Assembly: GCA_028277945.1 (NCBI GenBank)
Contig: JANQFH010000008.1
Span: 195,442-259,441 of the forward strand
From: Oligoflexia bacterium
GTDB lineage: Bacteria > Bdellovibrionota_G > JANQFH01
Direction of reading: 5' to 3'
DNA: 64,000 nucleotides
A program made the position numbers and the translations under genes. Shown here one piece after another: positions 14,608 to 43,253 of this stretch; the stretch's first letter is position 1, and each line of letters begins with the position of its first letter. The notes under the pieces were generated by a model. That model was not told the DNA's origin, did no database searches, and saw only the letters and a list, made by a program, of their open reading frames with translations.

Positions 14608-14619
14608 GATCAGCATACA

Positions 14620-15888
14620 TTAGAGCTTGTCGGAAATAAGGCTATATCTTTTGGCCGTGCTCCACAACAACAGTGTTGAAGCAAGCCCCACAATGCCAGA
14701 AAGACCAATTAACTTGCCTATGGCTGGATCGGCTTTCATAAGTACAGTGAAGATTACCATGGACAGTATATACCCGACTCTGCCATAAGCCTGTCCTTTC
14801 GATATTGAGTAGGTAAACCGATCTTGGCTAAATTGTGACTGAATCTTGTTTGAAAACATTATAAGGGAAACACCGTACAGGATACCGATAATGATCATTA
14901 GGGCAATAAAGGAGTCTCGAGAAGTTCCTCCAGCAAGAATTAGTGTTAGACTTAGAGCTACAAGAAGAAGAATCAATTTATGAATACTACGGAAGTACAC
15001 TTGAAATGCATTTGGGAAGAGAGTAATTGCGGTTAATGCTAGGAGGAATCCAAAGTAGATAGACGATGGACCTGAAAGTATTCGTGTAATTCCAGAAAGA
15101 TGTTTTGATGCTGCTAGCGATTGCATAAGAATAAAGGCAACCGCTCCAAAAGCTAAATTTGTCAAAAATAGAAACTGATTGTTCCATTTTAGCCAATGGT
15201 CGTCTTTTAAATCTATGATACGTTGATTTGCATTGTTCTGAAAAACATCAACCGATACTTGTTGCATACTGGTTATCTTTTTCATAAAGGATAGTAAAAG
15301 GAAGAGTCCAAGTAGAGAAATAAGGTAGGTTATGGAGTTTACGATGCAGACGACAGACCATCCACTAGTTAGCAGCAACGCTGCGACTGAAGCACTTACC
15401 ATGTTTACTCCACGATTTGCAGCATTCGAGAACGCTAAAGCTCTAGGTAGAGGGAAAAAATTATTCCTATCCAGGAAGATAGGAATAATGGTGGTCAGTT
15501 GTCTTGTTATAAGTGATAATGTACGCATTACTATCATCAGAGCGAGAAATAAGCCGTAAAATAGGTGCCTTGGAAGATATGATATTAAGATAGGCAGAAT
15601 GGTCAGTCCCATTAGGATAAATTCGATACATAGGGCGTAAAAAATTCTATCCTTGATATTTATAATGCGATCAATGTATTTTCCAAGAAAGGGTGCTAAA
15701 CCAATTTGCAGTATGGCATCTGTAGAGAACAGAATCCCCGATAACAATATTCCCGAACTATCGTCAAGAAAGAGTGCAACTGCGAAGAAAAGTAAAAGGC
15801 TATCCCCAAGTTTGGAAATAATCGATAAAGAAAGATACCCCCAAATAGGCGCCTTTGTCATGTTGTGGATTGGCTTTTCTCTATCCAT
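14620..15888 (-). CDS. MFS-type transporter
   Basis: 422-aa polytopic membrane protein (about 12 predicted helices), MFS-like loop motif GKYIDRIINIKDR; AT-rich. Confidence 0.7.
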   Translation of the reverse strand: MDREKPIHNMTKAPIWGYLSLSIISKLGDSLLLFFAVALFLDDSSGILLSGILFSTDAILQIGLAPFLGKYIDRIINIKDRIFYALCIEFILMGLTILPILISYLPRHLFYGLFLALMIVMRTLSLITRQLTTIIPIFLDRNNFFPLPRALAFSNAANRGVNMVSASVAALLLTSGWSVVCIVNSITYLISLLGLFLLLSFMKKITSMQQVSVDVFQNNANQRIIDLKDDHWLKWNNQFLFLTNLAFGAVAFILMQSLAASKHLSGITRILSGPSSIYFGFLLALTAITLFPNAFQVYFRSIHKLILLLVALSLTLILAGGTSRDSFIALMIIIGILYGVSLIMFSNKIQSQFSQDRFTYSISKGQAYGRVGYILSMVIFTVLMKADPAIGKLIGLSGIVGLASTLLLWSTAKRYSLISDKL

Positions 15889-15905
15889 ATACTATCATCA
15901 ACAAG

Positions 15906-16033
15906 GCAAGAATTAGGCCAATAGGAATGTCCGGTATTCCAATGGGTTGTAGATAGGTAACGCTTAGGAACAGTATGTCTGATATAGGACGCTCTGTTCA
16001 CCCTGAAGACAGTTTGTTTGTATTGCGAACAAT
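15906..16033. repeat. conserved ~128-bp operon-leader element, copy 1 (pairs with 28018..28145)
   Basis: About 80 percent nucleotide identity to 28018..28145 by eye; internal dyad symmetry (ACAG..GTCTGATATAGGAC..CTGT) and ACAGTTTGTTTG core; lies 17 bp upstream of the MFS start at 15888. Confidence 0.6.
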
Positions 16034-16149
16034 TGAGCCGTTGCCGGTCTGCCATCATGGAACCTCGCATCTGCCTTCAAGGTAAAGGTATACTCATCTC
16101 CTGCATCAGAGAGCAGCCCATTTTCTTGACCACAAACCAACGAACGCAT
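15964..16149 (-). pseudogene. internal fragment of a family-5 SBP gene (deletion remnant)
   Basis: Translation LLSDAGDEYTFTLKADARFHDGRPATAQ matches residues of the SBP5 paralogs (SDAGDEYTFTLNSDARFHDGSPVTAR in 43334..44740), then runs into the leader repeat; no signal peptide and no remainder of the roughly 500-aa protein. Confidence 0.5.
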
Positions 16150-17643
16150 CTAGCGTACCCACAAGACAGATGTATCATGTCTCGTTAGATTGATACTTTC
16201 AGGAAGCATGCCCGCAGAAGCACGATCATCGTGTACCAGGGTCTCAATAGCTCGGCCATCCGCAGATTCACCATGAAAAGCAAAGTAGCCACACCAATAG
16301 CTTAGTGGATCTGCCATGGCATTCAAGTAGGAATAGACATCTATGAGTTCAGAACGTAGCTGAGCAATCTCCGTTTCTGTTTCTCCAAGACCAAAACTCA
16401 GTTCTTCGATAGTCTCTTCCAAGTCGTGAGATGACCGCAAGTCGCCGCTGAAGCAGGTCGCAATAGCAGAAAGTCTTTCCTTCTCTAACCGGCTCAGCTT
16501 TCCTTCGTCGTGAAGTACTTGAACTTTTTGTCTAAACTCCTGTGGATTTTTCTCGATTTCCTCTACAGTAAAACTAATCGACTCTCTCTTATTTTCCAAA
16601 ATTGACAGGCCTCTCAGCGCGTCGATCAGTGTATCTATGACTACTACATCCTCGCCTTTCAAATCCTTGCGAAATTTTTCGAGACTTTGGACAGCCAATT
16701 CGACTGTCGCAAGACTTTCTCTAAAGTAGCTCCCCAGGGCCCTTCGAACAGTCATAGCATCTCCTATTAAAGAGACGAGTTCTCTTGAAGAGTCAGCAAT
16801 AGCCTCTAATCTTCTCAACCTCTGGCCTATTTCCTGACAAGGTTCGAGCAAAATTTTTCTTCTAGCACCTACTCTCAATATCAAGAGAGGAACATGATAT
16901 GGCCGATAGAACATCACAACTTCTGATAGGTCTGTCCTCGACCGCTCATCATATGAGCCCGTAATCGGATGAGGGTAGTATCGCCCTCGAAAATAATTAT
17001 CCACCACTCTTCTAATCAGTTCCCCTTTGAGACGAATTTCCAAAATTCCAGGCTCATCGATTTCAAAAGCTAGTTGAACAAACTCTGGACCAAGTTCAAA
17101 TTGCCTACCCATATCTGCATTTCTGTACATACCCCTATCGGCAAACATAATAGGTTCGCTTAGGGCAAAGTGGGAAACCCCATAATAAGCTTCCCTTTTC
17201 CTATCCCATCTCTTCAAGCTCTTCCAGGTAGTTAGAATGGTCTTTGAGTTTAAACGAACATCAACGTTTACCTTTAATCCGTCTAAACTCCTTTCCAGAT
17301 CGGTTCTCTCACCTCGCCGTTCTTCAAAACTTGCTCCAACAAAATGTAGATCTAGCTCCAAGAGGTACGGCCCTGGGCGAATGATTTTCACTCCTGGGAA
17401 CCTTAGTTCTTTGTTGCCATCTATGATATCAGGATAGTCCGAAGATAGACTGGTAATAAATCTACCGTTTTCCATCCTCCCAAAGAGTCGAAAATTAGTA
17501 ATATCAGCGTAGCTTCCAATTCTAGGACCACGAACTCCATGATAAAAAGTATCTCCAGCCTCTGCAGCACGATCACATAGCGCTACTAGTGCAACCAGAG
17601 ACAATAGGAGCCAATGGTACTTTTGTGTCTTTAGAATTATCAT
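16150..17643 (-). CDS. secreted hypothetical protein
   Basis: 497-aa ORF with N-terminal signal peptide; no recognised motif; the C-terminal end may be derived from the adjacent SBP5 remnant. Confidence 0.4.
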   Translation of the reverse strand: MIILKTQKYHWLLLSLVALVALCDRAAEAGDTFYHGVRGPRIGSYADITNFRLFGRMENGRFITSLSSDYPDIIDGNKELRFPGVKIIRPGPYLLELDLHFVGASFEERRGERTDLERSLDGLKVNVDVRLNSKTILTTWKSLKRWDRKREAYYGVSHFALSEPIMFADRGMYRNADMGRQFELGPEFVQLAFEIDEPGILEIRLKGELIRRVVDNYFRGRYYPHPITGSYDERSRTDLSEVVMFYRPYHVPLLILRVGARRKILLEPCQEIGQRLRRLEAIADSSRELVSLIGDAMTVRRALGSYFRESLATVELAVQSLEKFRKDLKGEDVVVIDTLIDALRGLSILENKRESISFTVEEIEKNPQEFRQKVQVLHDEGKLSRLEKERLSAIATCFSGDLRSSHDLEETIEELSFGLGETETEIAQLRSELIDVYSYLNAMADPLSYWCGYFAFHGESADGRAIETLVHDDRASAGMLPESINLTRHDTSVLWVR

Positions 17644-18395: not shown

Positions 18396-19142
18396 CTACT
18401 CTCCAAAACCCTTCACAAAAAACTTCTCATCGATCAACCGCAGACCCTCATAGACCTCATACTTGATCAAGGCACCCTTGGTATCGCGGTAGAGCCCTTT
18501 GCGCACTTGTCTTGGTTTTTTGTAAAGGCCCTCAACCTTGCTCAAAAAGGCTGCCAGTTCCTCTCTACTAAAAGGGCCATGCCGTTCCCAATCGAGCCAA
18601 TCAGGGCCAATGGAGACCACCACCGATAGCTCACGGCTGCCAGGTTTTACTCCACCAAAGAGCTTCTTTGCCATCCTCTGACTGCCAAGCGTCAGGAGGT
18701 GCCAGTTGCGGCTTTCAAAATGCTCTCGCTTGTTCTGCTGATCCATAAACATAAAATAGACGCCTTCGCTCCAGGAGCTACGATCCAGATTGACGCCTTT
18801 TTTGAAGCGCTCTAAAAATGTTTTTAAATCGGCAGGTTGATCATGCCAATGCCGTATGATCCTTTTGATAAAAGACCAGGTTGAGATGACAGACATGCCC
18901 TCCTCATCTTGCGACTGATCCAGAGAGTCGAGTTTTTCTAATTCATAACCTCTAAACAGTTCCGAACCTGTATCAGGCTCTGTTACCAGCAGCAGAGCAC
19001 CATCTTTAAGTTCCACAGTATCTCCAAACTCTATAGGTCTTTCGATATCCTCAGGAACTCCAGGGATATCAATCACTGTATCTCCCTGCTGTGCAAAGGG
19101 AGAGTCTGGATGGGGGGGTCGTTTTTCTCTCTCACGCATCAC
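18396..19142 (-). CDS. hypothetical protein, possible immunity/partner protein for the upstream RES-domain protein
   Basis: 248-aa ORF whose start overlaps the stop of 19139..20923 by 4 nt; no signal peptide; acidic. Confidence 0.4.
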   Translation of the reverse strand: MMREREKRPPHPDSPFAQQGDTVIDIPGVPEDIERPIEFGDTVELKDGALLLVTEPDTGSELFRGYELEKLDSLDQSQDEEGMSVISTWSFIKRIIRHWHDQPADLKTFLERFKKGVNLDRSSWSEGVYFMFMDQQNKREHFESRNWHLLTLGSQRMAKKLFGGVKPGSRELSVVVSIGPDWLDWERHGPFSREELAAFLSKVEGLYKKPRQVRKGLYRDTKGALIKYEVYEGLRLIDEKFFVKGFGE

Positions 19143-20923
19143 TCTAGGGCCTCAAAAAGAACGACGTTAAAGCCATCTGGATTTCTTGCCGAGGGTACGA
19201 CAATACCACGATAGTGCAGCCGCGCCAATTCTCCTATTATTTGTGTTATTGAGTAATCCTCAGAGATCAAAGCTTCAGGAGCTATATTTAATAGCTCCCT
19301 GACACTTGGTTCATTAAGATCGAGCATGTTGTCGAGTGTGACATAGCGGCTTCTTGTTTCAATCACCCCCTTGACACCATGGGCTCGCATTTCCGCGGCG
19401 ATGGTCTGCCGATCGCCGCTCATGTAAAGCGCGCTTCTTCCCGGCGCTGAATAGCGATGGTTGGCGGCAATATTACCCTGCGGTATTTTCCACGAACCTG
19501 CTCGGTAAACATCACCTCTGTATTTACTTCCCTTGACAACACCTTGAACCAGCTTTTTGGTGGTATCAGGCCCCAAAGCTTGGCTCGCCCTTATCACCGC
19601 AGGCAGATGCTGCTGATCAAAGAGCTTTCTTGCCAAGCCACCACCACCGCGCCCTAGCAAACTGGTGGTCCCTCGGACCATGACCGTGCCTGACAGGACC
19701 ATAGGCACCATCATGGAGACAACTGTCTCTAAAGCCATCTCAAGCGGCAAGCTCGCCTCGACAACTCCAGTTGACGAATCCTCTTGTAGTGCCCACAAAT
19801 GGTAGTCTGCTGCCGCCATTTTGAGTGCTCCTGACAAGAACTCGCCGTCTCGGATATCTTGCACTCCCTCAATCATTAAATAGGCGGCATCTATAAGATG
19901 TGGCAGATCTGGCAGGGTTAAGGCATGATCGAGGGTAATCTCCACATGTTGCCAGATGTGTTGGGAGAGCCTCTCACCTAGATCGCGCTCTAACAGCGCC
20001 AACTCATCGAAGGTCTCAACACGGATGCGCGCCATGGAGCTGTCTGCTTCCAAATGGAGTCGACCTTTGGCCGTTGATTGAGCGCGTTCTGCTCGGTCAA
20101 TGAGTTCGTCTAATGTCTCCTGTATCCAGCGATGTCGTATGAGATCTCGCATGCTGCGAAGCTCGTGAACCCGCCGTGAGAATGCCGCGTAGCCATAGGC
20201 AACCACCTCCTTACTTGAAGCCCGTTCCACAGCCGCCAGGGCAACATCGGTGGAGGTGGCCGTGAGCCCCAGAAATAGTGGCAATCCATGTCTGTTTTCA
20301 GGAAGTGGCAACTGAGCTTGCTGTTGAAGTTGCACAAAAAGAGAGGAGTTGTGGATCATGTCACTAGCGGAACTGTGAGAAGCGAGATCGGAACCACCCC
20401 TTTCGTGGAGGGTGCGAATGTCGAGGCCGCTTGCAGATGATTCATCTCGAAGCTGATCATCTTGAGCTTGCTCTGCAGAGAGGCTTAGATGTTTGTTACT
20501 CTCTGCAACTGCAGTGTTGGCTTGAAGTAGGCTGAGGCCACGTTGCAACCCTGTAAGGTACTGAACTCTACGCCGAGCTTCCACATCACTGTGAGTCGGT
20601 GCTGAGCCTTCTTCATCCTCATCATCAAATCCACCGATCTCTCCTCTCGGGCTATCAAAGAAAGGGTCAAATCCTTCATCTTCTGTTTTGTCTTTGGGTT
20701 TTTGAGAGGAAACGATAACAATAGGCGTGTCAAAAACAATATGGACGTTGCCATCGGAGTCAACGGTCACATTTCCTGGCTCTGTGGTGTAGTCGTGCTC
20801 TCTTTCCTGAGCTGATTCAGTTTGTCCTGCATCATCTTGTGCAACAAGCTCTCTCTGCAACGGCGAAAAAAGACAAATCGTCGCGATCAATAAATAAAGC
20901 AGGCTTTTACATGAAATTTTCAT
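19139..20923 (-). CDS. secreted protein with C-terminal RES-domain (NAD-targeting toxin-like) module
   Basis: 594-aa ORF; signal peptide; C-terminal region with RES-domain signatures YRAGSW ... RYSAPGRSALYMSGDRQTIAAE ... VVPSARNPDGFNVVLFE. Confidence 0.6.
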   Translation of the reverse strand: MKISCKSLLYLLIATICLFSPLQRELVAQDDAGQTESAQEREHDYTTEPGNVTVDSDGNVHIVFDTPIVIVSSQKPKDKTEDEGFDPFFDSPRGEIGGFDDEDEEGSAPTHSDVEARRRVQYLTGLQRGLSLLQANTAVAESNKHLSLSAEQAQDDQLRDESSASGLDIRTLHERGGSDLASHSSASDMIHNSSLFVQLQQQAQLPLPENRHGLPLFLGLTATSTDVALAAVERASSKEVVAYGYAAFSRRVHELRSMRDLIRHRWIQETLDELIDRAERAQSTAKGRLHLEADSSMARIRVETFDELALLERDLGERLSQHIWQHVEITLDHALTLPDLPHLIDAAYLMIEGVQDIRDGEFLSGALKMAAADYHLWALQEDSSTGVVEASLPLEMALETVVSMMVPMVLSGTVMVRGTTSLLGRGGGGLARKLFDQQHLPAVIRASQALGPDTTKKLVQGVVKGSKYRGDVYRAGSWKIPQGNIAANHRYSAPGRSALYMSGDRQTIAAEMRAHGVKGVIETRSRYVTLDNMLDLNEPSVRELLNIAPEALISEDYSITQIIGELARLHYRGIVVPSARNPDGFNVVLFEALE

Positions 20924-22313: not shown

Positions 22314-24110
22314 CTAACTCTGAGGCCGCAGGCCAATTGGAACGAGGCTAGCGAGACTTTTAGGAATACATTTCACACCAAGTCGAGCACAATTCATGAG
22401 GACAACCTCCTCTTCAAAATGGCTTGTCACAAGTATAGCCTGATCTTGAAGGTTGAGCTCTTCAATGAGATCGAGCCCGGTTTCCTTAAAGTTGAGAAGT
22501 TCATAGTCACACAGAAATAAAGCATTGTGTGTATCATTCTTCTCAACCCATGTTCTTATGGCGTCGGGTGTAGACAGATTGTCAAGTTTGATCCTATTTC
22601 CTCCTCCGTTGCGTAATGCATGAAATCGCTCTCGCCAAATCTGATGAATCGTAGGATCGTCGTCCAAGGTTACAATGCGGGAGTCTGGCGCAACTTCAAG
22701 TCTGGGTACAAACCAAGACGGAGGACTTTCTTTGGGTAAAAGCAGAGATATCTGAGTACCTTGTCCTTCCGTACTCTCAATTTTAAGCTCACCTCCCCAG
22801 CTTTCAGCGGCCACTTTTGCATGATAGACTCCAAGACCTAGACCACTATCCGTTCCCCCCTTTCCATAGGTCACTCCCTTTTGGCCCAGTTTTCCGAGAA
22901 TGTCCGGTGGTATTCCTGTCCCGTCGTCTTTTACATAGAGACACAATGTTGAATTATTATGTTGGAACAGGCCAATTTCGATGACACCCTCATCGGTCAT
23001 TGCTTCAACAGAGTTATTTACAAGATTTGAAATTACACGCTTAAGCTCAACAGCACTGACTTTGGCAAACAGTCCGTAGGATTTTTCATCCAATTTGGCC
23101 TCAATTCGGATTCCTGTTTTAGTTCGGAATTGACCCCGTTTTTCGCTGACGATACTTTCTATAATACTTGATATCAACCAAGTCCTTCTCATGGCTTGAT
23201 TGGGCCTCTCGTCATGTTGAGCCTGATGTATATTTCTGCCCAGCAAGTTGTTGGCGATATCTTTAATACGTTGGGACGCATTACGTATAAGAACGCGTTT
23301 CTCTTCCGGAATGTCTACAAGAGTGCCAGCCAAAAGATCCAATGCTGCTACAGGAGCTCGTATATCATGCGCGATTTGTTGAGCCACTTGGTAAACAGCT
23401 TCCGCCTTTTTTGTTTCGATCCTATATTGATTTGACTGAAGAGTTTGTTGCGCAAGTTTCCTAATGGAAGAGGTGAGAATAACAACTTCGGACAGATCAC
23501 CCTTGATATTTGGCTGATCAAGGAGTGAAAGATCTTCTAAGTTGCCACTTTCAGCTGTTTGACTAAGCGTGTGTAGCGGTGCTGAGATCCGATGTGCCAC
23601 TCTTTTTAGCATAAGGAAAGCTATAGCAGCGATAGTCATTAAGACAAATAGAGATACTCCCATAATCCGGTAGTATAGACCACGAATGATTCCGGTATTA
23701 AACCTCATACTAACCATAGCCGCTGGTTGTGTCTTTTCGTCGTCAAAATATACAGTGCGTTCAACGACAAATTTACTCGTCCTCGACACTTCTGCAGTTT
23801 CTGGTAAACTCTCGTAAATAACTTCTCCTCTTATGTTCGAAATAATAATGTTATCTATGGCCTCTTTTTTTATCAAGAGATTGCACTTTTCACGGATGCT
23901 GAGGTGAGAGCCGGTAAGAATTTCGTAGCGAATATTCTCGGAAAAGAGTTCTAAAATCATCTCATGTTTTGACGCAACTAAGTTATCGAAACTCTTGTTA
24001 ACCGCAAATAGAATTAGGATTCCCACAAGAATTAAACCCAATGATACTGTTATTGAAAAAGTTCTGAGTAAACTGGTGAATACAGTATGTTGACGTTTAG
24101 GCATTTCCAC
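22314..24110 (-). CDS. hybrid sensor histidine kinase with C-terminal receiver domain
   Basis: 598-aa ORF; two TM helices flanking a periplasmic domain, H-box IAHDIRAPVAAL, HATPase_c motifs (NLVNNSVEAM, DDGTGIP, GLGLGVY), REC-like C-terminus (TLDDD ... LFLCDYEL). Confidence 0.85.
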   Translation of the reverse strand: MEMPKRQHTVFTSLLRTFSITVSLGLILVGILILFAVNKSFDNLVASKHEMILELFSENIRYEILTGSHLSIREKCNLLIKKEAIDNIIISNIRGEVIYESLPETAEVSRTSKFVVERTVYFDDEKTQPAAMVSMRFNTGIIRGLYYRIMGVSLFVLMTIAAIAFLMLKRVAHRISAPLHTLSQTAESGNLEDLSLLDQPNIKGDLSEVVILTSSIRKLAQQTLQSNQYRIETKKAEAVYQVAQQIAHDIRAPVAALDLLAGTLVDIPEEKRVLIRNASQRIKDIANNLLGRNIHQAQHDERPNQAMRRTWLISSIIESIVSEKRGQFRTKTGIRIEAKLDEKSYGLFAKVSAVELKRVISNLVNNSVEAMTDEGVIEIGLFQHNNSTLCLYVKDDGTGIPPDILGKLGQKGVTYGKGGTDSGLGLGVYHAKVAAESWGGELKIESTEGQGTQISLLLPKESPPSWFVPRLEVAPDSRIVTLDDDPTIHQIWRERFHALRNGGGNRIKLDNLSTPDAIRTWVEKNDTHNALFLCDYELLNFKETGLDLIEELNLQDQAILVTSHFEEEVVLMNCARLGVKCIPKSLASLVPIGLRPQS

Positions 24111-25611
24111 CTAATCCTTTTCGGTGCAATTTCCATAATTCATGAAAAAATGTCTCTCCAAATTTTGGCATGTCTATTTGCTTTTTTAAGAGAATAGGAT
24201 AGTCAAAGGCCAGAATAGGGACAAAAAAATGTCTGCTTTCAAAATCTACCAGCTCTCTCTCGTACAGTTTTAGGCGTCGCAAGCGTTTTTTAGTAAACCG
24301 GATTGCCGAAATCCTATCCAAGAATTCTTTAACGGGAAATAATCTTTCAACGCCAAATAGCTTGCTCTGTAGAGGCCACAGGTAGCCATCTGGATCAGTT
24401 AGGCCTGCACCAAAAATAAAAGAGATCAGATCGAAATCCCCTGTCTTGTAGTAATTCAATAGCAGGGCCAAATCGACGATTCGAATATCCGGAACTAACC
24501 CTAGTCGTTCTAAAAGGGAGGAAACGCTATTGATGTGTTGCTGAGACATAAAACCTTTGTATACAACGACTCGAAATTTGTGGCCCTCAAGTTTCGGATA
24601 TTTTGTGACAAAGTTATCTTCAGTGATTTGGCTTTTTCTTGGTCCATAATAAGACATCGGAAGAGTACCCTCGGGAAGGAAGGTATGAAGAGATTTCTGG
24701 AAAGGCACTAGATTTTTCTTGATGGTGGATAGTGATGAAATAAGATAGCTTAAGTCGCGTCGTAGATTAGAGGACTTTAGATGGGCTCTATGTGTGTTAT
24801 ATAGGAAATGTAACACAAACACATTGTTGGGAAGAACCACATCAAAGCTGCTGCTATCAAGTTTGATTTTCGCAAGTTCATATGGGGCCACACCCAAAAA
24901 AACATCGAATTTGTTGGCCTCTATCAAGGTTCTTAAATCACTATAATCGTATCCTTCAACCACAAGTTTATAAATATTTTCGGAGGAAGTTCTTGGTTCA
25001 AAGCTCCAAGTTTTTCCTTTATTTGTTAGACTTGCAGTCATTAAACCGGAGCCGGTACAACAAAACGATTCTTTTTCGACAATGCCAAAAAGAGGATTGT
25101 TAAGAAGCTTTAGAAAAGGAGGATAGGGCCCCTTGAGATAAAATCTAATGTGTTGTTCGTCTATTGCCTCGACAGCATTGGTGCCTGCTTTGGTCTTGGG
25201 TTGCAGGGCAAGCTCCAAAATCGATCGTGAAGAAAAGTTTGATTCTAAAATTCTGAGAAATGAGTGCTCAACATCTTTGGCAGTGATTTTTCTTCCATTA
25301 TGAAAGCGTAGGTTAGGTTTTAGCTTAAAAGTGTATTCTCTGCCACTATCGTTTATGCTCCAACTTTCGGCTAGTTCAGACACAACAATACCTCTCTCAT
25401 TCAGGCGGACTAGACGCGAAAATACACAGGCGCTCATCATAAGGTGCGATACCGATACTATTTTCATTGGATCTAGAGTTTGTGGGAGAATGCTCACACC
25501 AATCTTTAGTTCATTGTAATTCGTCAGGTCTTTTGCCAGCAAATCAGTACTCAAAAAGCATATTAAGAATAGCACGGAGAAAATATTGAATTGTTTAGCA
25601 CTCTTTTTCAT
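24097..25611 (-). CDS. family-5 extracellular solute-binding protein, orphan
   Basis: Start chosen at ATG 25611 (MKKSAKQFNIFSVLFLICFL signal peptide) rather than the upstream in-frame start at 25701; stop overlaps the histidine kinase start by 14 nt. Confidence 0.8.
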   Translation of the reverse strand: MKKSAKQFNIFSVLFLICFLSTDLLAKDLTNYNELKIGVSILPQTLDPMKIVSVSHLMMSACVFSRLVRLNERGIVVSELAESWSINDSGREYTFKLKPNLRFHNGRKITAKDVEHSFLRILESNFSSRSILELALQPKTKAGTNAVEAIDEQHIRFYLKGPYPPFLKLLNNPLFGIVEKESFCCTGSGLMTASLTNKGKTWSFEPRTSSENIYKLVVEGYDYSDLRTLIEANKFDVFLGVAPYELAKIKLDSSSFDVVLPNNVFVLHFLYNTHRAHLKSSNLRRDLSYLISSLSTIKKNLVPFQKSLHTFLPEGTLPMSYYGPRKSQITEDNFVTKYPKLEGHKFRVVVYKGFMSQQHINSVSSLLERLGLVPDIRIVDLALLLNYYKTGDFDLISFIFGAGLTDPDGYLWPLQSKLFGVERLFPVKEFLDRISAIRFTKKRLRRLKLYERELVDFESRHFFVPILAFDYPILLKKQIDMPKFGETFFHELWKLHRKGLGGNA

Positions 25612-25616
25612 TTGTG

Positions 25617-26933
25617 TTATGATCCTGACCGCACAGAGCTCTTTCGTTTTTGTTCGGATAATAAATAGACAGAAAAAATAGAAACAACACAGATGATACA
25701 CACTGTAATCATGGCCTCTTCAACAGAAGGAGCTCCATCTCTACATTTGCCTAGGTACCAGCTGTAGAAGCCGATACCTGCAAAAGCAGGCATATTCTGT
25801 AAACTTAGAGCTGTTGCCAATTCCTCATTGTCTACTACGGAGCATAGAAGGTTAGTTGCTAATGCGCCTGTGGCTCCGACCACAACATCAGCCATAACGG
25901 CGTATACTAAGATCATGAGGATTAGCATCGTAGGGTTTAGTGAGCTGAATGTACATAAAATATACAGACTGATTGTAGCAAGAAGAGTAAAGTGAATTAA
26001 GAGGTAATTATTTGTACTTAATCTTTTGCTCATCACTAGCCTTGGTAGTACATGTCCTCTTACAATCCATCCTATTCCACCATAAGCAAAGGTAAAGAGT
26101 CCCATGATAAACCACGAGAATAGGCCGTGGTCCGCATTTCCAAACTGTCTACCCAGAGTGATCGCAAAGTAGCCCGCGTTTACTGCAGCTAACATAAAGG
26201 CTGATAGCCGTAAATAAATCGCCTTTTTGGCGACCATACTTTGCCGTAACCTGCTGATTAGATTCGATGTGCTTGGTCTCCCCCCACTTATTGAAGTATC
26301 ACCATAAATACGAAAGTCCCTGAAAAGACGATAGAATCCTGCATACCATAGCAAAATACCGATGATCAGTGTGTGATGCACTCCAATGGTGTGATAGGTA
26401 ACAAAAAGTAAGACAAAAGCCAGCAGGATAACCAAGGCTGTGAGATATTTCCCGGCATGTTGGCTGAGAGTAAAACTTTGGCTGGCCATTTTCTCTGCTT
26501 CGTTATGTCCTTTTGATAACCTACGGATAGCATCCTGGTAGAAAGCCTCCACAGATCCTGAAATCAATGGCTTTGAAAATCCAACAATGACGCCATGTAT
26601 GATAAAAAGAAGCCGAGAAAAGGTGTTCGGCATGCTCGGGAAAAGGGCCACATAGATGCCACAGGTTCCAAGGAGAATAAGAAAACCGCCCAATAGTGCG
26701 CAAGGAATTCTACCAAAACGATCCGCAACGTATCCCATTGGAACTTCAAAAATCACATTCATCAGAAACTCAATGCCCGTAAGCAGAGCAACTGTATCAA
26801 GCGGTACGTTAGCCAGCACACCAGCAGTAATACGGAAAGTGATCGAAATGAAATGAGTTGATGCGAGGTTGAGAGCTCTAAATATACCTAAACTTTTAAC
26901 ACATGCTTGAGTTTGTGCGAGGGTTTGATCCAT
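25617..26933 (-). CDS. MFS-type transporter
   Basis: 438-aa polytopic membrane protein with MFS motif-A-like loop GYVADRFGRIP. Confidence 0.7.
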   Translation of the reverse strand: MDQTLAQTQACVKSLGIFRALNLASTHFISITFRITAGVLANVPLDTVALLTGIEFLMNVIFEVPMGYVADRFGRIPCALLGGFLILLGTCGIYVALFPSMPNTFSRLLFIIHGVIVGFSKPLISGSVEAFYQDAIRRLSKGHNEAEKMASQSFTLSQHAGKYLTALVILLAFVLLFVTYHTIGVHHTLIIGILLWYAGFYRLFRDFRIYGDTSISGGRPSTSNLISRLRQSMVAKKAIYLRLSAFMLAAVNAGYFAITLGRQFGNADHGLFSWFIMGLFTFAYGGIGWIVRGHVLPRLVMSKRLSTNNYLLIHFTLLATISLYILCTFSSLNPTMLILMILVYAVMADVVVGATGALATNLLCSVVDNEELATALSLQNMPAFAGIGFYSWYLGKCRDGAPSVEEAMITVCIICVVSIFSVYLLSEQKRKSSVRSGS

Positions 26934-26945
26934 TATGATCTCTAT

Positions 26946-27779
26946 TTACACTTCTATTCTCTCTCTGACACCTAGCATAAACAACTTAATGTCCTTATCG
27001 AATTCCAGAAGACCAGATTTTGTAATAGTAGTAAGATCCTTTATATACTTGTTCTTATAACAATCTAAAATACGACTGGAACTCTGCTTGATTAACTCTT
27101 CTATCGAGTGATTCGAATGTATCCGCAAACCAAGTTCCAGCATGGCCGCCTCAGCAAAGGCTGCATGATAGATACCGAACAGTGGCCTTTTCATGTTTCT
27201 CAAAGCTGATCGGTCTTCTTTTGCCCATGGATAGCGATTCACTGTGGCTTCACTTTTTGTTGCAAAGACAATAGTAAGGTAGTGATGGCCCAACTCGTGA
27301 GCTAGAATTTCTGCCCACTTCACAGGGTCATCACTATTCATTACATATTCAATAAGTCCAAAGACTTGGGGATCAGAGGCTGATTCGTGTTCAACACCTT
27401 GCCTGGGAAAACACATTCTTGGTTTGATAATTTGCTCAAATGCAAATAGTTTCTTCCATACTACTCCGATAATTGTTCTTGCTGCAGAGTATAGTGCTTC
27501 TTTTTCTGGATAGCGTTGCAGTGAAGAATCAAAAATAATGTTACTGCCAACTACGAACTTGCTACGTGCGATATCACGAGTTATTAGATTGCTAACTTGG
27601 TCAGTTGACAGACTAAACTTATCACGATTGAAATAGATCCAAGAGAGAGTTGATAAGCTCAATTCTCTATTAATGTCTATATTGCGGAATGCTGGTATGA
27701 GCTTAAGAGCTTGCATTCCCTGCTGTCTAAATTGACTAACGTATTTTTTTGTCAGATCAATTGAGAATATAGAAGGCAT
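26946..27779 (-). CDS. HExxH-motif protein (paralog of 12609..13601)
   Basis: 277-aa ORF with AHELGHH and RPLFGIYHAAF segments; first long gene after the candidate precursor ORF. Confidence 0.55.
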   Translation of the reverse strand: MPSIFSIDLTKKYVSQFRQQGMQALKLIPAFRNIDINRELSLSTLSWIYFNRDKFSLSTDQVSNLITRDIARSKFVVGSNIIFDSSLQRYPEKEALYSAARTIIGVVWKKLFAFEQIIKPRMCFPRQGVEHESASDPQVFGLIEYVMNSDDPVKWAEILAHELGHHYLTIVFATKSEATVNRYPWAKEDRSALRNMKRPLFGIYHAAFAEAAMLELGLRIHSNHSIEELIKQSSSRILDCYKNKYIKDLTTITKSGLLEFDKDIKLFMLGVRERIEV

Positions 27780-27817
27780 TCATCATGCCAATTTTTTATT
27801 ACGTTTTAGTTGCCTCA

Positions 27818-27922
27818 CTACGACCCGGTAGGTATGCTAGCTAACTTAGCACCTAGCACACGGTGTGATTGAAAAGAGAAATTGAAGGAAACTGTCTTTT
27901 TACTTTCGTTGCTTTTTGCCAT
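27818..27922 (-). CDS. candidate precursor peptide (34 aa): MAKSNESKKTVSFNFSFQSHRVLGAKLASIPTGS
   Basis: Below the ORF-track size cutoff; ATG preceded by AGGAG at 7-nt spacing; stop lies 38 bp upstream of the HExxH gene start. Confidence 0.35.
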   Translation of the reverse strand: MAKSNESKKTVSFNFSFQSHRVLGAKLASIPTGS

Positions 27923-28017
27923 TTTCTAGCTCCTGGTTACAGATGGTTTGTAACTTGTTTGTAATTTTGTCAGTTACACATTATCTGGAATCGATAGCAA
28001 TTAATACCTTTTCAAAA

Positions 28018-28145
28018 GCAAGAGTTAGGCCAATGGGAATATCCAATATTTCAATACGTTGTAAATATATGATACTCGGAGACAGTGTGTCTGATATAAG
28101 ACATTCTGTTCACTATGAAGACAGTTTGTTTGTATTTCGAACAAT
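28018..28145. repeat. conserved ~128-bp operon-leader element, copy 2
   Basis: Paralogous to 15906..16033; contains GTCTGATATAAGAC imperfect palindrome and ACAGTTTGTTTG; lies about 95 bp upstream of the candidate precursor ORF at 27922. Confidence 0.6.
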
Positions 28146-28499
28146 AGCCTCAGTAAGGATTGAGGTAGGTTAGGCTCCATTTTTTATTCCTAGGTAACCC
28201 ACTGAAAGTAAACAAAAGGTGCAGTTGACGCAACTTGGGTTGGCACCGATCTGATGCGGCGCGCCCTTATTTGATATATTCTTGTTATTTTCATATAGTT
28301 AGCGAACCTATCTTCTGGTACACTAGTTGCAACTCCTAGAGAGTAGGGTACTAGGAGTTAATAGGGAACTAAAGTTACAAAAACCTCGGTATGAGGTTGC
28401 AATGTAACACGATAATGTATTAAAATTAAATTCTTAATTGAAAAAATAATACGTAACTTCTAGAGCTACGAACGTGTGTCATCAAAGGAGGGGGGCAAC

Positions 28500-29189
28500 A
28501 TGTTTCGCAACAAGGGTAGACGGTTTTCAAATAACGGCTTTTCTCTAACCGAGGTGATGATCTCGGTATCGATTGTTGGCATCCTCTCTGCTGTAGCCAT
28601 TCCTACGTATAAGAAACACTTCCGCCGCGCAAAAATCGCTGAGGCGCATCTGGGTTTGGCTGACCTACACAAATCCATGCAAGCGCACTTTCTCCAACAT
28701 CGTTGGTACAACGCCAATATAGATCAACTAACTAGTGACGCTAAGTTCACAGACTCAAAGTCACGGGCAATCTATGGGTTTAATGCAAACCAATATACTG
28801 GAGGTACATTCCCAACATGTAAAACCACCAACGAGGACTGCTTTACTACTCATGGGGAGGGTAATGATTTAAACGTAACTCCTGCGGATATCTTATTTGA
28901 ACGAGCCTGCCCCCAAGTGTCCTTCGGATCACTAGTAAAGTGTTCCTTTCCTATTCCGAGCTATGATCCTCGCAGCGGCGACCCTAAAGCCAGCGATTTT
29001 ACGTGGGGTCGACCAACCCGTTATGAAGCGCATGCAGTCATGGATATAGATAACGACGGCGAGTTGACAGTCTTTGGTGTTAATGAAACAGGTACGATTT
29101 TCCAGCTCTGTAATGATGGTGACAGTGTTGAAGTGGCTGGCAGTTATACTGGGGCACTTGCGGGAGATGTTATCTGTAGTAGACCCTAG
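28500..29189 (+). CDS. type IV pilin-like protein (prepilin-type N-terminal cleavage/methylation domain)
   Basis: ATG at 28500 preceded by AGGAGG; N-terminus RRFSNNGFSLTEVMISVSIVGILSAVAIP matches the prepilin G-F-(S/T)-L-x-E motif plus hydrophobic helix; Cys-containing C-terminal domain. Confidence 0.7.
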   Translation: MFRNKGRRFSNNGFSLTEVMISVSIVGILSAVAIPTYKKHFRRAKIAEAHLGLADLHKSMQAHFLQHRWYNANIDQLTSDAKFTDSKSRAIYGFNANQYTGGTFPTCKTTNEDCFTTHGEGNDLNVTPADILFERACPQVSFGSLVKCSFPIPSYDPRSGDPKASDFTWGRPTRYEAHAVMDIDNDGELTVFGVNETGTIFQLCNDGDSVEVAGSYTGALAGDVICSRP

Positions 29190-35657: not shown

Positions 35658-37493
35658 CTAGGCACTATATCTCGCCAGTGATGATTGATTGTTCAATTCG
35701 GGCATTACTAGTAGCGGCACAGTATTCGCCAGCATTTTAGGTAGTAATTTCACTTTCCACTTAGTACATAATTCTTGAATTTCCATTTCTTCAAAGCGAG
35801 AAGTTACAAGTATTGATTGTTGCTCCAGCCTGTATTCCTTGATCAAATCCAATCCGGTTTTTTTACTTCCTAGCAATTCATAGTCAAAAAGATAAATTGA
35901 TGGTCCCTGTTCTTTATGTTGTGCTAGATAGCTTGATGCATCGGTATAATTAGACAAATCAACTTGATTAATGGAATGTAGATATTTCAGCGGGCCAAGC
36001 CGGTTTGTCCACACGTGGTGGATAAATATATCGTCGTCAAGTACTACAAAGTCACTATTTGGCTTTATATGAATTTTTGGAACATACCAATTTGGTGGAG
36101 GAGCCTTGGGAACTATCATCTTCACATTCGTTCCCATGTTTTGCCGTGAGTCTATTGTTAGTTCTCCATGCCAACGTCCTAAGGAGCTCTTCGCATAGTA
36201 TAAGCCTAGTCCTAATCCATGTTTCTTGTTAGCAGTCACACCTCTCTCTGTCGCTTTTTTAAGCAGTTCCTCTGACATGCCGCATCCATTATCCGAGACT
36301 TCAATACAAAAATTGTCTCCGGAACAATTGCATAGTCGTATACTAACTTCACCATTATTTGGAATAGCTTCCACGGCGTTATTAATAAGGTTCGAGAGAA
36401 TTCTTTTGAACTCGACAATCTCGACCTTCGCAAAGATACTATAGGCTTCTTCCGTAAAAACTGTATTAATCTTTATATCCTTACGTCCTGAAAACTGAAT
36501 CCTCTTTTCGGACACAAGAGTTTCTATAAGCACGGCGATCTGCTGAGTACTTACACGTTCGAAGTGAGTGTTGTCTAAATGGCGGGCATCCTGATCTGAG
36601 TAATAGGTATTGTCATTCCAAAGTAGCTGACGATGCTTTTCTACTAAGCTATTAGCAATATCCTGAATACGTGTGGCCGCTTGTCGCAAAAGAACACGTT
36701 GTTCTTCAGGGATATCACTAGAAGACTTGCCCAACATCTGCAAAGCAGTCAACGGTGATCTGATATCATGGGCCACTCTTGAGGCAATCTCGCCCATTGC
36801 GGCCTTCTTTGTTGCTCGTACTAGAACAGCTTGGGCTGTTTCTAATTCTTTTACCAATTTTCGAGTATTTTTGTATAATTCATTAATCTCCTTTATGTTT
36901 GAAAATCGTACTTCTTGAGAATTCTCAAATAGAGACCTTAGTCCATGTTGCGAAAGTCGTCTAGATAGATGCACTATCGGCCAAGTAATTTTTTTTCCTA
37001 TAACCCCTCCTATCCAGACGAATATAATAAATAGGGAAACAAGGGCTATTACGAGCACTACTAACGCTCGATAAACAGATCGTGATAATAGTTGTTGTGA
37101 AAAAACAATCTGGATCGTTGCTGCCATTTCTTTGCTAGTTTGATCAAAGTAGACATGAGAGGTAATAACTTCAGTTGAGGAGATTCCCTCACGTTTGGTG
37201 GTACTGCAGATTGAAAAATTTTGACTGTCAACAACACTTATACCCAAAATTGACCGGTCACGTAAAAGTATTTTACATTTTCTGTAGACTTCCGCATGGG
37301 CTCCTATAAGAAGACTGTGGCTTATGTCCTCGGTAAAGATGTTTACGATAGATTGGAACTTTGCTTGAAGCTCCTCCTCTGCACTCTTCTTTATCAAGTA
37401 GAGTGCCAATGCCCCACTAAGTACGACAGTTGCCGCCGTTATGACGGCTGAGGGAACGAACATAGCCCTGCCTAATGTCCACCTAAATCTCAT
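35658..37493 (-). CDS. hybrid sensor histidine kinase with C-terminal receiver domain
   Basis: Paralog of the other two kinases; H-box VAHDIRSPLTAL, N-box NLINNAVEA, G-box DNGCGM, REC-like VVLDDD ... LFDYEL; start taken at ATG 37493 (track TTG start at 37532 is the alternative). Confidence 0.85.
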   Translation of the reverse strand: MRFRWTLGRAMFVPSAVITAATVVLSGALALYLIKKSAEEELQAKFQSIVNIFTEDISHSLLIGAHAEVYRKCKILLRDRSILGISVVDSQNFSICSTTKREGISSTEVITSHVYFDQTSKEMAATIQIVFSQQLLSRSVYRALVVLVIALVSLFIIFVWIGGVIGKKITWPIVHLSRRLSQHGLRSLFENSQEVRFSNIKEINELYKNTRKLVKELETAQAVLVRATKKAAMGEIASRVAHDIRSPLTALQMLGKSSSDIPEEQRVLLRQAATRIQDIANSLVEKHRQLLWNDNTYYSDQDARHLDNTHFERVSTQQIAVLIETLVSEKRIQFSGRKDIKINTVFTEEAYSIFAKVEIVEFKRILSNLINNAVEAIPNNGEVSIRLCNCSGDNFCIEVSDNGCGMSEELLKKATERGVTANKKHGLGLGLYYAKSSLGRWHGELTIDSRQNMGTNVKMIVPKAPPPNWYVPKIHIKPNSDFVVLDDDIFIHHVWTNRLGPLKYLHSINQVDLSNYTDASSYLAQHKEQGPSIYLFDYELLGSKKTGLDLIKEYRLEQQSILVTSRFEEMEIQELCTKWKVKLLPKMLANTVPLLVMPELNNQSSLARYSA

Positions 37494-39021
37494 TGTCTTT
37501 AGCCCACTGTAGTCGGTAGAGAGGAAAGTCAAATTGGTAGCGTTTTTCCGGGACTTTAATATGTTTGTGGTAAATTACCGGAGTATAAAGATGAAATAAT
37601 GGAACGATAAATGACTTTTCCTCAAACTCAATCATTAGATCAGTGTATTTTTCTAATCTCCGTATACGGTCAGATATGAAACTGATTTCATCAGCACCCT
37701 TTAAAAGCTTCGTTGTGGGGAAATTGCCAAATTGGATTGGATTTTTGGCTCGAAACAAGTCTAGGAAGCCATCTGGGTCTGGTATGACTCCAAAATAACC
37801 TACCATAATCAAATCGTAATCTTTGCTTTTTAGAAGAGGTATAACCTCTTCAATATTTTTGAACTCTATAATCGGGATCATACCTACGTTGGTCAACACT
37901 TCACTGATAGCCTTACCTACAGGTATGTTTAAATATTCTTTCCTCAAAACTATTCTAAGCTTTTTATGTTTTACTTTATTTTTCCAGAGCTTTTTGAAAC
38001 TGATCGGACTCATACGGCGAAAGTCACGTTCGTAGTATCTTCTTAGAAGAACGCCATGTGGTAAAAAATGCTTCTGATGGTCTATAAAGAAACCGGGTTT
38101 CTCTATCTGGGAAACTCGAGTTTTTATTAGCGCCGCAATATCTCTTCTAAAACTTTCATTACTTAGTGCTGGATTGTCAGTGTTTGTATATAGATGTAGG
38201 ATGCCCAGTCCTCCTAGACGGAGTAACTGATAATTATTTGGTAGTGTTCCCGGTTGTAATCCTGGATCAGCAAAGCCTAATGCGAAGTCAATCGAGTCAT
38301 TCCGTAATTGTGATAGTAGTTGATTTGCGCTTTCTACCCGTCGAAACGAAAGCCTGGATATATGGCTATCATTGGGAACGAACGGAACCATCTGCAGACG
38401 ATTTGGCAGTTGTACTGAGTCCAGAGAAAAAGAGCCAGACCCCACTACCTGAGAAGAACTACCAGAGGACTTTTTAGTTACACCGTAACCAGGTACTGCT
38501 AACAATTCTAACAGATACGGATACGGACGCTTGAGGCTTAGAATAATCGTGTGCTGATTCGGAGTGATAATTCCCGATGGTATTTGTCCATCTTTCAGGT
38601 TTTCGGCACCTACCACGATACGACCTAGATAGCTGGATATTTGCGTCATACTACCTTGCCATAAATGGCGTGACAGACTAAAGGCGATATCTTTACTCGT
38701 AATGAGCGCACCATCATGGAACCGAGCATGACGATCCAGATGAAAGCTATAACGTCTTCCATCTGAAGATATCTTCCAGCGCCTTGCAAGATCAGCTGTA
38801 ATACGATTTTCTTTGTCTAACTTTACTAGAGTGCGTAAGTATGGTCTAAGAAGGTCAGAATGTACGTAATGCCACGCATCTATTGGATCCAGAGAGCTGG
38901 GCAAAATAGGCAACGCTATCTCAAAGCTGTTGGTTGTCTTACGGTACTTCTGTTTAGATGATGCTGCATAAGTATGAAAGACAAATGAAAATAAAAGAAA
39001 GTGCAACAGGCACGCCTTCAT
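37483..39021 (-). CDS. family-5 extracellular solute-binding protein, orphan
   Basis: SBP5 paralog; start taken at ATG 39021 (MKACLLHFLLFSFVFHTYAASS signal peptide; GTG at 39042 is the alternative); stop overlaps the kinase start. Confidence 0.8.
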   Translation of the reverse strand: MKACLLHFLLFSFVFHTYAASSKQKYRKTTNSFEIALPILPSSLDPIDAWHYVHSDLLRPYLRTLVKLDKENRITADLARRWKISSDGRRYSFHLDRHARFHDGALITSKDIAFSLSRHLWQGSMTQISSYLGRIVVGAENLKDGQIPSGIITPNQHTIILSLKRPYPYLLELLAVPGYGVTKKSSGSSSQVVGSGSFSLDSVQLPNRLQMVPFVPNDSHISRLSFRRVESANQLLSQLRNDSIDFALGFADPGLQPGTLPNNYQLLRLGGLGILHLYTNTDNPALSNESFRRDIAALIKTRVSQIEKPGFFIDHQKHFLPHGVLLRRYYERDFRRMSPISFKKLWKNKVKHKKLRIVLRKEYLNIPVGKAISEVLTNVGMIPIIEFKNIEEVIPLLKSKDYDLIMVGYFGVIPDPDGFLDLFRAKNPIQFGNFPTTKLLKGADEISFISDRIRRLEKYTDLMIEFEEKSFIVPLFHLYTPVIYHKHIKVPEKRYQFDFPLYRLQWAKDNEI

Positions 39022-39038
39022 CAAAATGTGAATGAGTT

Positions 39039-40130: not shown

Positions 40131-40144
40131 ATGCCTCCCATCAG

Positions 40145-40258
40145 TCTATGCGGGTAGAGAAAGGGGAGGCTTACCTAGATCCCTACAGTCACGCCACGTA
40201 TTACGACAATCTTCTCCAATTTATCTAAATCTATGTATTCTCGTCTTCTTTTTTTCAT
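40145..40258 (-). CDS. candidate precursor peptide (37 aa): MKKRRREYIDLDKLEKIVVNTWRDCRDLGKPPLSLPA
   Basis: Below the ORF-track cutoff; ATG preceded by AGGAG at 6-nt spacing; stop lies 14 bp upstream of the 39039..40130 gene. Confidence 0.35.
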
Positions 40259-40895
40259 GATTTACTCCTATTTAGGTTATATCCACCAATTTTTCAAGCT
40301 CTTATTTGATATCCTTAAAGCTTAGGATGCACCCTATCCTAATTTATTTCTGCAAGGAACGTGCTAACAAAAAAGTTAATGATTTTAAAAGATTGGGTTC
40401 TTCAGGAAAGAGTATTGTTGGTTTTTGCAACAATCTAGTGCATAAAACGACAAATTGTATCTCTTACGACCAAGGTTAATAAAAGTTAATAGTGATTGAA
40501 GGGGAGGATTAGTTGTGGAGTGTTAACCCTTGGATGATATTAGACGAATTTTGAAAATCGGTCTTAATCTATTGATAAAAAAGAAACTTTTTGGGAAATT
40601 GGGGTTGATTGCCGACTGACCCAACAAAATACTACAGAAGTCTTAATGTGACAGACGTAACACATGATTCATTTCAGATGCTTATGTTGTAGTGCAGAGT
40701 GTATAGAATTTTCTCAACAAGAAGGCATATATCCTGGGAAAGGCTGCTGGTTATGGGATGTGGCCTTGCCTACTGGTATGGCGACTTACAACACTTACTC
40801 TTTTGTTAATTTCCGTAGGACTAAGAGTGGTTGCGAGGCTGGTGTACAGCATTCTCCCTATTTCAGTGGAGGGCTTGTTTTCAGAGTTTAAACAC

Positions 40896-41000
40896 CTAGT
40901 TCGCTATGAGGCTTTCCATAAACTGGTAGCCTTCGGCAATTGCAGCATCGGTAATTTGGTCCTTCAAACTGTCAACACTTCTCCGTCCCCAAGCACATGA
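40896..41000 (-). pseudogene. 3'-terminal remnant of a paralog of the lipase-like gene 44960..46414
   Basis: Minus-strand translation ...SVDSLKDQITDAAIAEGYQFMESLIAN-stop matches the C-terminus ...GLKDQITDAAITEGRQFMESLIVN-stop of 44960..46414, with a nucleotide match of about 70 bp; no upstream body. Confidence 0.5.
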
Positions 41001-41116
41001 AGTGTGTTGAACTTGAAATAGGTCTGCTACCTAAGCGAATGCTTTCCTACATTCCTATTGAAGTAGTTGGGCATAAATTACGTTAGTGGTTTTAACAAAT
41101 ACTAGTTAAGGTCTTG

Positions 41117-43131: not shown

Positions 43132-43253
43132 TGGTCTGACATATCTTGGTTGTCACCCTACAAACTACACATAGATTGTGTCAAAATTGAACAGTTTGTT
43201 TGAAATGGAGACAGTAACAAACCAAGTAAAAACTAACTGATTTTATGCCTGTG

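Follow-up and report, generated by a model that had tools for sequence, protein, structure and literature searches.

What is the role of a 131-nt sequence that occurs twice, in the same orientation, in a 64,000-nt stretch of DNA from an Oligoflexia bacterium (GenBank assembly GCA_028277945.1, contig JANQFH010000008.1, positions 195,442 to 259,441)? The whole of this stretch is referred to as the window, and coordinates count from its first nucleotide. Both copies of the element lie upstream of minus-strand genes or operons, in two different clusters of the type that makes RiPPs, peptides that are synthesized on ribosomes and modified after translation. The reading that we favor, and to which we give an even chance, is that the element is a duplicated sigma-54-type promoter-enhancer module that would place both operons under one activator. 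That it is regulatory DNA of some kind appears rather probable.

The element is an ungapped direct repeat, the longest that a repeat search finds in the window.

15903..16033, minus strand: copy 1 (131 nt), flanked by gene 16150-17643 and the major facilitator superfamily (MFS) gene 14620-15888
28015..28145, minus strand: copy 2 (131 nt), within the 696 nt of divergent intergenic DNA at 27780-28475

On direct comparison the copies are 80% identical; they differ at 26 positions, and the longest stretch free of differences measures 21 nt. Within the window they match each other with E = 1e-28 in blastn and E = 1e-42 to 1e-44 in nhmmer. The flanks of both copies are unrelated, and the similarity breaks off sharply at each end. 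An independent contig of the Logan assembly matches window 9886-16105 with 0 mismatches and so contains copy 1 unchanged. An earlier note on this DNA, which had described an element of about 128 bp occurring twice at about 80% identity, is thereby confirmed, as are several of its particulars. The nested inverted repeats that it reported are found in copy 2 as ACAG (28082-28085) and CTGT (28106-28109) around TGTCTGATATAAGACA (28088-28103), and in copy 1 as GAACAG (15968-15973) and CTGTTC (15994-15999). They are short (arms of 4-7 nt) and singly within chance for 131 nt; what is notable is their retention in both copies. The conserved core that it pointed out, ACAGTTTGTTTG, is exact in both copies, and its placement of the copies relative to genes agrees with ours: copy 1 ends 15-17 nt upstream of the ATG at 15888 of the MFS gene, and the distance from copy 2 to the downstream gene 26946-27779 is 238 nt. 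Allowing at most one mismatch, the core is found five times in the window against 0.37 expected from shuffles, and a third exact match is intergenic, upstream of a gene for a solute-binding protein (SBP).

43191..43202, plus strand: third exact core ACAGTTTGTTTG, 132 nt upstream of the SBP gene 43334-44740; no −24/−12 site after it

The evidence for a sigma-54-type module begins at the gene-proximal end of the element. Here both copies, read along the minus strand on which the downstream genes are encoded, have the sequence TTGGCCTAAYTCTTGC, which fits the −24/−12 pattern of sigma-54 promoters (GG-N10-GC). TGGC-N7-TTGC is present in both copies and directed toward the downstream genes, and GG (−24) and GC (−12) stand exactly 10 nt apart, together with TTGC, in TGGCCTAACTCTTGC (28032-28018) and TGGCCTAATTCTTGC (15920-15906).

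28017..28033, minus strand: candidate sigma-54 promoter of copy 2, TTGGCCTAACTCTTGCT, with GG at 28031/28030 (−25/−24) and GC at 28019/28018 (−13/−12)
15905..15921, minus strand: candidate sigma-54 promoter of copy 1, TTGGCCTAATTCTTGCC

One substitution, at 28024, separates the copies within the 17-mer core, and it affects the non-specific N5 spacer. The putative transcription starts are near 28006 for copy 2 and near 15894 for copy 1. The candidate promoter of copy 2 is intergenic and oriented toward the ATG at 27922, 95 nt away; in copy 1 the MFS gene would begin either at the ATG at 15888, 17 nt away, or at that at 15861, 44 nt away, and the NCBI annotation of this MFS protein, a 413-aa version, agrees with the 15861 start. 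A matrix derived from the 29 Salmonella sites that PMC3844500 lists, applied to about 128,000 positions of the window, ranked copy 2 third (14.7 bits) and copy 1 fourteenth (11.4 bits). A consensus scan showed no sigma-70-type promoter common to both copies: two weak candidates occur in copy 2 only, in the variable spacer described below, and none lies on the minus strand inside copy 1. Two further signals were dropped. A site for integration host factor in the spacer, TATCATATATTTA in copy 2 and close to WATCAANNNNTTR, is absent from copy 1, and a plus-strand promoter of the extracytoplasmic-function type, GGAAT-N16-CGTT, occurs in copy 2 alone.

The opposite end of the element is a conserved block with three dyads, separated from the candidate promoter by a variable, AT-rich spacer.

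28077..28145, no strand assigned: distal conserved block of copy 2, candidate enhancer; 69 nt, three dyads, spanning −76 to −139
15965..16033, no strand assigned: distal conserved block of copy 1; dyads i and ii keep their arms and vary at their centers
28045..28081, no strand assigned: variable AT-rich spacer between promoter and enhancer block

Relative to the putative start of copy 2, the dyads are centered at −129 (TTGTTTG-N5-CGAACAA, 28126-28144), −109 (TGT-N11-ACA, 28107-28123) and −89.5 (TGTCTGATATAAGACA, 28088-28103, of the form TGT-N10-ACA). AGACA occurs in copy 2 at 28080, 28099 and 28119, with a spacing of 19-20 nt. The arms of dyads i and ii are identical between the copies, and the differences are confined to the centers (28137; 28114-28115). 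The spacer differs at 15 of its 37 positions, the remainder of the element at 11 of 94 (Fisher p = 4.6e-4 with boundaries set post hoc), a pattern suggestive of bipartite conservation. The general architecture of sigma-54 promoters and their enhancers, the latter usually 70-150 bp upstream of the promoter, is described in PMC3844500. No 8-mers are common to the distal block and the other sigma-54-like promoters of the window, which fits an activator specific to these two operons; nor were shared enhancer motifs found upstream of those promoters.

Such other promoters are not rare in the window. TGGC-N7-TTGC was found nine times where 2.6 are expected, and with a weighted consensus seven of the eight best sites are intergenic, although intergenic DNA makes up 13% of the window; all seven face a gene 14-316 nt downstream. 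Dinucleotide shuffles give an expectation of 0.2 for these intergenic sites, and 0 of 300 shuffles reach seven. Several of the sites precede operons for small peptides and modification enzymes.

12329-12345, plus strand: sigma-54-like site, near-perfect TTGGCACACAATTTGCT, 48 nt before the 40-codon open reading frame (ORF) at 12393 that heads an HExxH/YcaO operon
28315-28331, plus strand: sigma-54-like site CTGGTACACTAGTTGCA, facing the pilin-like gene 28476-29189 on the opposite side of copy 2
40367-40351, minus strand: sigma-54-like site TTAGCACGTTCCTTGCA, 93 nt before the 27-codon ORF (40258) that heads a DUF4135/SBP/kinase operon
46973-46957, minus strand: sigma-54-like site TAGGCACGATTCTTGCG, before 46898
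57570-57554, minus strand: sigma-54-like site, ending 14-17 nt before a predicted start codon
57806-57822, plus strand: sigma-54-like site
63338-63354, plus strand: sigma-54-like site, ending 14-17 nt before a predicted start codon

These sites would indicate that such promoters are used in this genome, and given their local enrichment the sigma-54 reading of the element fits the local pattern. The sites at 57570 and 63338 are, as in copy 1, so near to start codons that very short leaders or mis-called starts are suggested. In the region 57536-57570 the sequence GTGGCATTTTC of the sigma-54-like site is at the same time one arm of an 11-nt inverted repeat, GTGGCATTTTC ... GAAAGTGCCAC, across the start codon of gene 55970-57538, and may be an operator instead of, or besides, a promoter.

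If the element is a sigma-54-type module, an enhancer-binding protein of the NtrC family would bind the dyads, loop over the AT-rich spacer and use ATP to open the complex of sigma-54 holoenzyme at −24/−12. From copy 2, transcription starting near 28006 would then cover the precursor-like ORF and the genes for the HExxH hydroxylase, MFS transporter, solute-binding protein and histidine kinase, and from copy 1, starting near 15894, the MFS exporter of the neighboring hydroxylase/YcaO cluster. Since the two enhancers are so alike, we propose that both operons answer to the same activator and are switched on together. We infer that sigma-54 is used here and that an activator binds at the dyads; pairs of SBP and kinase may sense the exported peptides and feed this activator.

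Several observations weigh against this interpretation. The scores of 14.7 and 11.4 bits are below that of every one of the 29 Salmonella training sites (at least 16.0), and the −24 box is TGGCCT in both copies, without the A of TGGCA; the extended consensus is TGGCAC-N5-TTGCW, and this A is important for sigma-54 recognition (PMC3844500). The dyads are short and not significant one by one, and in copy 1 dyad iii has one degenerate inner arm (CGTCC versus TGTCT). With a scan statistic corrected for the choice of boundaries, the uneven conservation is marginal (p = 0.06), and the third core at 43191 is not followed by a −24/−12 site. No Sigma54_activat domain or rpoN gene was recognized among the proteins of the window, and sequence searches against the PDB revealed no hidden regulator among its unannotated proteins. 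Finally, only two copies were found, since the databases searched hold no relatives of this genome.

The main rival explanation holds that the element has no function and is a 131-nt scrap that was copied in the course of frequent rearrangement among the paralogous cassettes of the island, possibly from decayed SBP coding sequence, and is now decaying neutrally; we consider this unlikely, if far from negligible. It draws on the marginal heterogeneity of conservation just mentioned and on traces of gene fragments in the island, one of which directly abuts the distal end of copy 1.

16035..16108, minus strand: SBP-gene relic of 74 nt, 84% identical to 43501-43574, inverted

A second relic, at 40895-40969, repeats 75 nt from the 3' end of gene 44960-46414 with 87% identity. 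Both relics are intergenic, and they indicate recombination between cassettes. A 5' region is duplicated as well (43254-43346 / 47260-47355). In the frame of the relic, a weak blastx extension into copy 1 aligns NPLEYRTFLLA with NPYEYFLFILA of the SBP encoded at 6689-8248. The Pfam SBP_bac_5 alignment, however, reaches no further than the relic, and DNA identity to the SBP gene 43334 falls from 84% to random exactly at the junction between relic and element; no significant similarity to SBP_bac_5 was found over the element itself. In Smith-Waterman alignment against four SBPs, copy 1 reached a marginal z = 2.9 once in 48 tests, and copy 2 scored z = 0. A scrap would also not account for the common orientation of the copies immediately upstream of operons, nor for the retention of GG and GC in both.

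The duplicated 5' region deserves description in its own right. Over 43216-43346 / 47220-47355 it extends to about 130-140 nt at about 75-85% identity, and it comprises promoter-like sequence, a ribosome-binding site and the first codons, ATGCGGAGTT, of the SBP gene 43334. Its second occurrence precedes operon 47380-50011 (a 122-aa protein, MFS transporter and methyltransferase), where it leaves a stub ORF of 16 codons. That the island shuffles pieces, including whole 5' regions, supports the copying of promoter modules; the same property keeps the scrap explanation alive. The element and this second region together make it seem that operons here acquire regulation by copying whole promoter modules.

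A second rival, which we rate as unlikely to the same degree, retains regulatory DNA but dispenses with sigma-54: a conventional dimeric transcription factor would bind an operator or promoter region common to both copies at the ACAG/CTGT and TTGTT/AACAA dyads, and the −24/−12 match would be coincidental. The dyads are indeed retained in both copies, the core ACAGTTTGTTTG recurs at 43191 before an SBP gene in the absence of a −24/−12 site, motifs containing ACAAAC recur in the second duplicated module (43216-43346 / 47220-47355), and the −24 box is off consensus. Coincidence is nonetheless difficult to reconcile with the enrichment of −24/−12 sites in the window, with the lack of a sigma-70-type promoter conserved between the copies and with the odds of the match itself, since by our own estimate the chance of TGGC-N7-TTGC in a given 131 nt is well under 1% even before a particular end and orientation are required.

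The earlier note had called the element a leader and considered it more likely regulatory DNA or RNA than coding. Its regulatory rather than coding character gains support from the spread of mismatches across codon phases (10/10/5), from stops that interrupt every long frame in one copy or the other, and from the same-orientation placement upstream of minus-strand operons; the element is most likely non-coding and regulatory. The leader and the RNA option found no support: there is no Rfam match and no significant conserved fold, and with a promoter at the −24/−12 match transcription would begin just past the element, most of which would then be untranscribed promoter and enhancer DNA and not a transcribed leader.

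A structured RNA is improbable in our estimation, whether as a 5' leader that belongs to the minus-strand operons or as a small RNA from the plus strand, antisense to them. The plus strand allows hairpins (ACAG..GTCTGATATAAGAC..CTGT, and TTGTTTG-loop-CGAACAA, the latter including a G:U pair), its consensus fold has −21.2 kcal/mol with z = −1.7 (25 of 500 shuffles fold as well), and copy 2 alone reaches z = −2.6 on the minus strand. Copy 1 alone gives z = 0.0 (minus) and −0.85 (plus), however, and the single folds are inconsistent between the copies. For the two copies, neither consensus fold nor compensatory pairs were better than chance: the minus-strand two-sequence consensus fold has z = −0.3, neither strand does better than column shuffles, and two compensatory pairs compare with 1.3-1.4 expected, a number that 226 of 500 shuffles reach; with two sequences these tests have low power. 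Rfam yielded no match at the gathering threshold in the window and none at E ≤ 10 within the shared part. At E ≤ 10 the matches were SNORD12, outside the element, and narK (18.6 bits, gathering 43.2), mostly outside the shared element and absent from copy 2. Nor do the copies have a terminator in common. Given the low power of the fold tests, a structured RNA is unsupported rather than excluded.

Still less probable is a small plus-strand protein with a conserved N terminus and a variable tail, resembling a RiPP precursor whose leader is conserved. Over copy 2 the plus strand has an 85-codon ORF that a stop interrupts in copy 1, just as the earlier note had stated that it is not conserved, and no homologue of it was found. 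A shorter plus-strand ORF with a common start does persist in both copies (copy 1, ATG 15975, 36 aa, MSDIGRSVHPEDSLFVLRTI...; copy 2, GTG 28087, 28 aa, MSDIRHSVHYEDSLFVFRTI...). Its start codons are at equivalent positions, with a purine-rich GGAG/AGGA 5 nt upstream, the common part is followed by unrelated tails, and RiPP enzymes are encoded nearby. Yet within the 20 codons common to both copies all seven nucleotide differences are non-synonymous, so that protein identity (16/20, 80%) is lower than DNA identity (88%), the opposite of what is expected for a gene under selection. The 72 nt upstream of the start are equally conserved, the tail in copy 1 is antisense to the SBP relic, and better precursor candidates with strong ribosome-binding sites exist on the enzymes' own strands. 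Among 1.84 billion representative proteins the small ORF has no homologue save a spurious tandem-repeat ORF.

A miniature mobile element or insertion-sequence end, to which sharp boundaries, unrelated flanks and the truncated gene relic next to copy 1 might point, is the least credible of all, as the two copies show neither terminal inverted repeats nor target-site duplication, the copies are only 80% identical, plasmid and phage collections contain no match, and the Logan contig passes through copy 1 unbroken and ends in a 33-nt exact repeat inside the SBP relic, so that no near-identical further copy (sharing a 31-mer) is apparent in that read set.

Searches for further copies had the same outcome. 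Neither nhmmer nor sensitive blastn detected a third full copy in the window. Against genome contigs, a 20-mer core gave chance or coding matches alone, namely the opening codons of an ORF of 406 aa in Alistipes genomes and, in a cyanobacterium, a gene that by its YTSGSTGKPKG motif we take to encode an AMP-binding enzyme. Two degenerate patterns run against metagenome contigs gave nothing and one chance match, respectively; viral contigs gave no match, and the plasmid and phage collections nothing relevant.

The genes around the copies are as follows, with the operon of copy 2 in order of transcription and then the surroundings of copy 1.

27818..27922, minus strand: 34-codon ORF MAKSNESKKTVSFNFSFQSHRVLGAKLASIPTGS, candidate RiPP precursor preceded by the ribosome-binding site AGGAG; the first gene to follow copy 2
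26946..27779, minus strand: homologue of aKG-HExxH-type peptide beta-hydroxylases (TIGR04267, 43.6 bits, cut-off 40)
25617-26933, minus strand: MFS transporter
24097-25701, minus strand: SBP_bac_5 protein
22314-24110, minus strand: histidine kinase
14620..15888, minus strand: MFS transporter directly downstream of copy 1, convergent with operon 12393-14607
12393-14607, plus strand: operon facing the MFS gene of copy 1, with a 40-codon precursor-like ORF (12393-12515), a TIGR04267 protein (12609-13601) and YcaO (13582-14607)

The two MFS proteins show no similarity to each other, and the two HExxH proteins are 28% identical over 121 residues. With 80% identity in the element and neighboring genes so strongly diverged, an old duplication of the clusters cannot have left the element behind passively; it was either copied later or is conserved. 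In a set of 5.8 billion proteins, the HExxH protein of copy 2 and the MFS protein of copy 1 matched only themselves. The source genome, also present in run SRR20820740, seems to be without sequenced relatives for these two genes.

SBP_bac_5 proteins are paired with RiPP-type or transport genes in four cassettes of the window (3907-8248, 22314-27922, 35658-40258 and 41114-44740), which also contain MFS transporters and small leading ORFs. A histidine kinase is present in three of the four, none being recognized in 41114-44740. Two further modification genes in these cassettes are listed here.

5737-6675: YcaO in an SBP cassette
39039-40130: DUF4135 in an SBP cassette

The four cassettes look like units of peptide production and sensing. 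Three small ORFs with strong ribosome-binding sites (12393-12515, plus strand, 40 codons; 27818-27922, minus strand, 34 codons; 40175-40258, minus strand, 27 codons) each lie between a sigma-54-like promoter and the gene of a peptide-modifying enzyme and have no evident similarity to one another; they are candidate RiPP precursors. Between the precursor-like ORF of the copy 2 operon and the start of its HExxH gene is a hairpin, GGCATGATGAATGCC (27773-27791), which also scores as −24/−12-like and could be an attenuator that sets the ratio of precursor to enzyme.

Known sigma-54 promoters with upstream activator sequences include glnAp2 with NtrC, the nif promoters with the NifA site TGT-N10-ACA, and pilin promoters with PilR. 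The element resembles these systems in its GG-N10-GC core with TTGC at −12, in dyads 76-139 bp upstream, one of them literally TGT-N10-ACA (copy 2), in an AT-rich and possibly bending spacer, in operons next to histidine kinases, and in the site CTGGTACACTAGTTGCA facing a pilin-like gene. It differs from them in its −24 box, TGGCCT in place of TGGCAC/T, and in that neither an activator nor rpoN was recognized in the window. The dyads of the element appear shorter and less regular than NtrC and NifA sites, and TGT-N10-ACA is too simple a pattern to imply NifA.

A second parallel is provided by the nis-box and spa-box promoters of lantibiotic clusters, where the same cis element stands before the precursor operon and the operon for transport and immunity, and a two-component system senses the mature peptide. 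Here too one element is used twice in RiPP clusters, before a precursor and enzyme operon and before a transporter, with sensor kinases in the same operons. The nis-box and spa-box, however, belong to sigma-70-type promoters, with OmpR-family regulators binding direct repeats, whereas the present element looks sigma-54-type, the sensors are paired with SBP_bac_5 proteins, and autoinduction is a conjecture only. With repetitive extragenic palindromic (REP) sequences and bacterial interspersed mosaic elements (BIMEs), enterobacterial repetitive intergenic consensus (ERIC) sequences and miniature inverted-repeat transposable elements (MITEs), the element has in common that it is a short, non-coding intergenic repeat with internal inverted repeats; it is unlike them in that only two copies, 80% identical, were found, that terminal inverted repeats and target duplications are lacking, and that orientation and distance to the downstream genes are fixed.

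A sigma-54 promoter with an enhancer is a textbook mechanism, and the value of the sigma-54-type reading, which introduces no new principle, is in annotating an opaque RiPP island of proteins without homologues. If true, it provides a handle on the control of the island, predicts a common activator for two operons, and specifies the exact bases to mutate (GG, GC and the three dyads) as well as a DNA bait for the regulator. A more far-reaching proposal, which we regard as doubtful, is that the element is the wiring point of a sigma-54-based peptide-signaling network: modified peptides would be made by paralogous cassettes, each comprising a small precursor gene, a RiPP-type enzyme, an MFS exporter, an SBP_bac_5 receptor and a histidine kinase, and would be sensed through SBP-kinase pairs that feed enhancer-binding proteins, and the module, copied before the exporter of a second cluster, would couple two peptide systems to one signal. 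The cassette proteins of this lineage are without detectable homologues, and such a network, if true, would be a form of RiPP autoinduction that to our knowledge has not been described.

The island differs from its surroundings in base composition, with a GC content of 0.40 in the cassettes against 0.47-0.51 in the flanks. Toxin-type domains, namely Fic, RES, HipA and those of two PIN proteins, are dispersed through it (9717-10907, 19139-20923, 50651-51907, 58138-58536 and 62183-62596), and the RES-domain protein also has a weak, sub-threshold MbnB/TglH-like Pfam match (E 0.005). A SelB gene is located at 488-2617.

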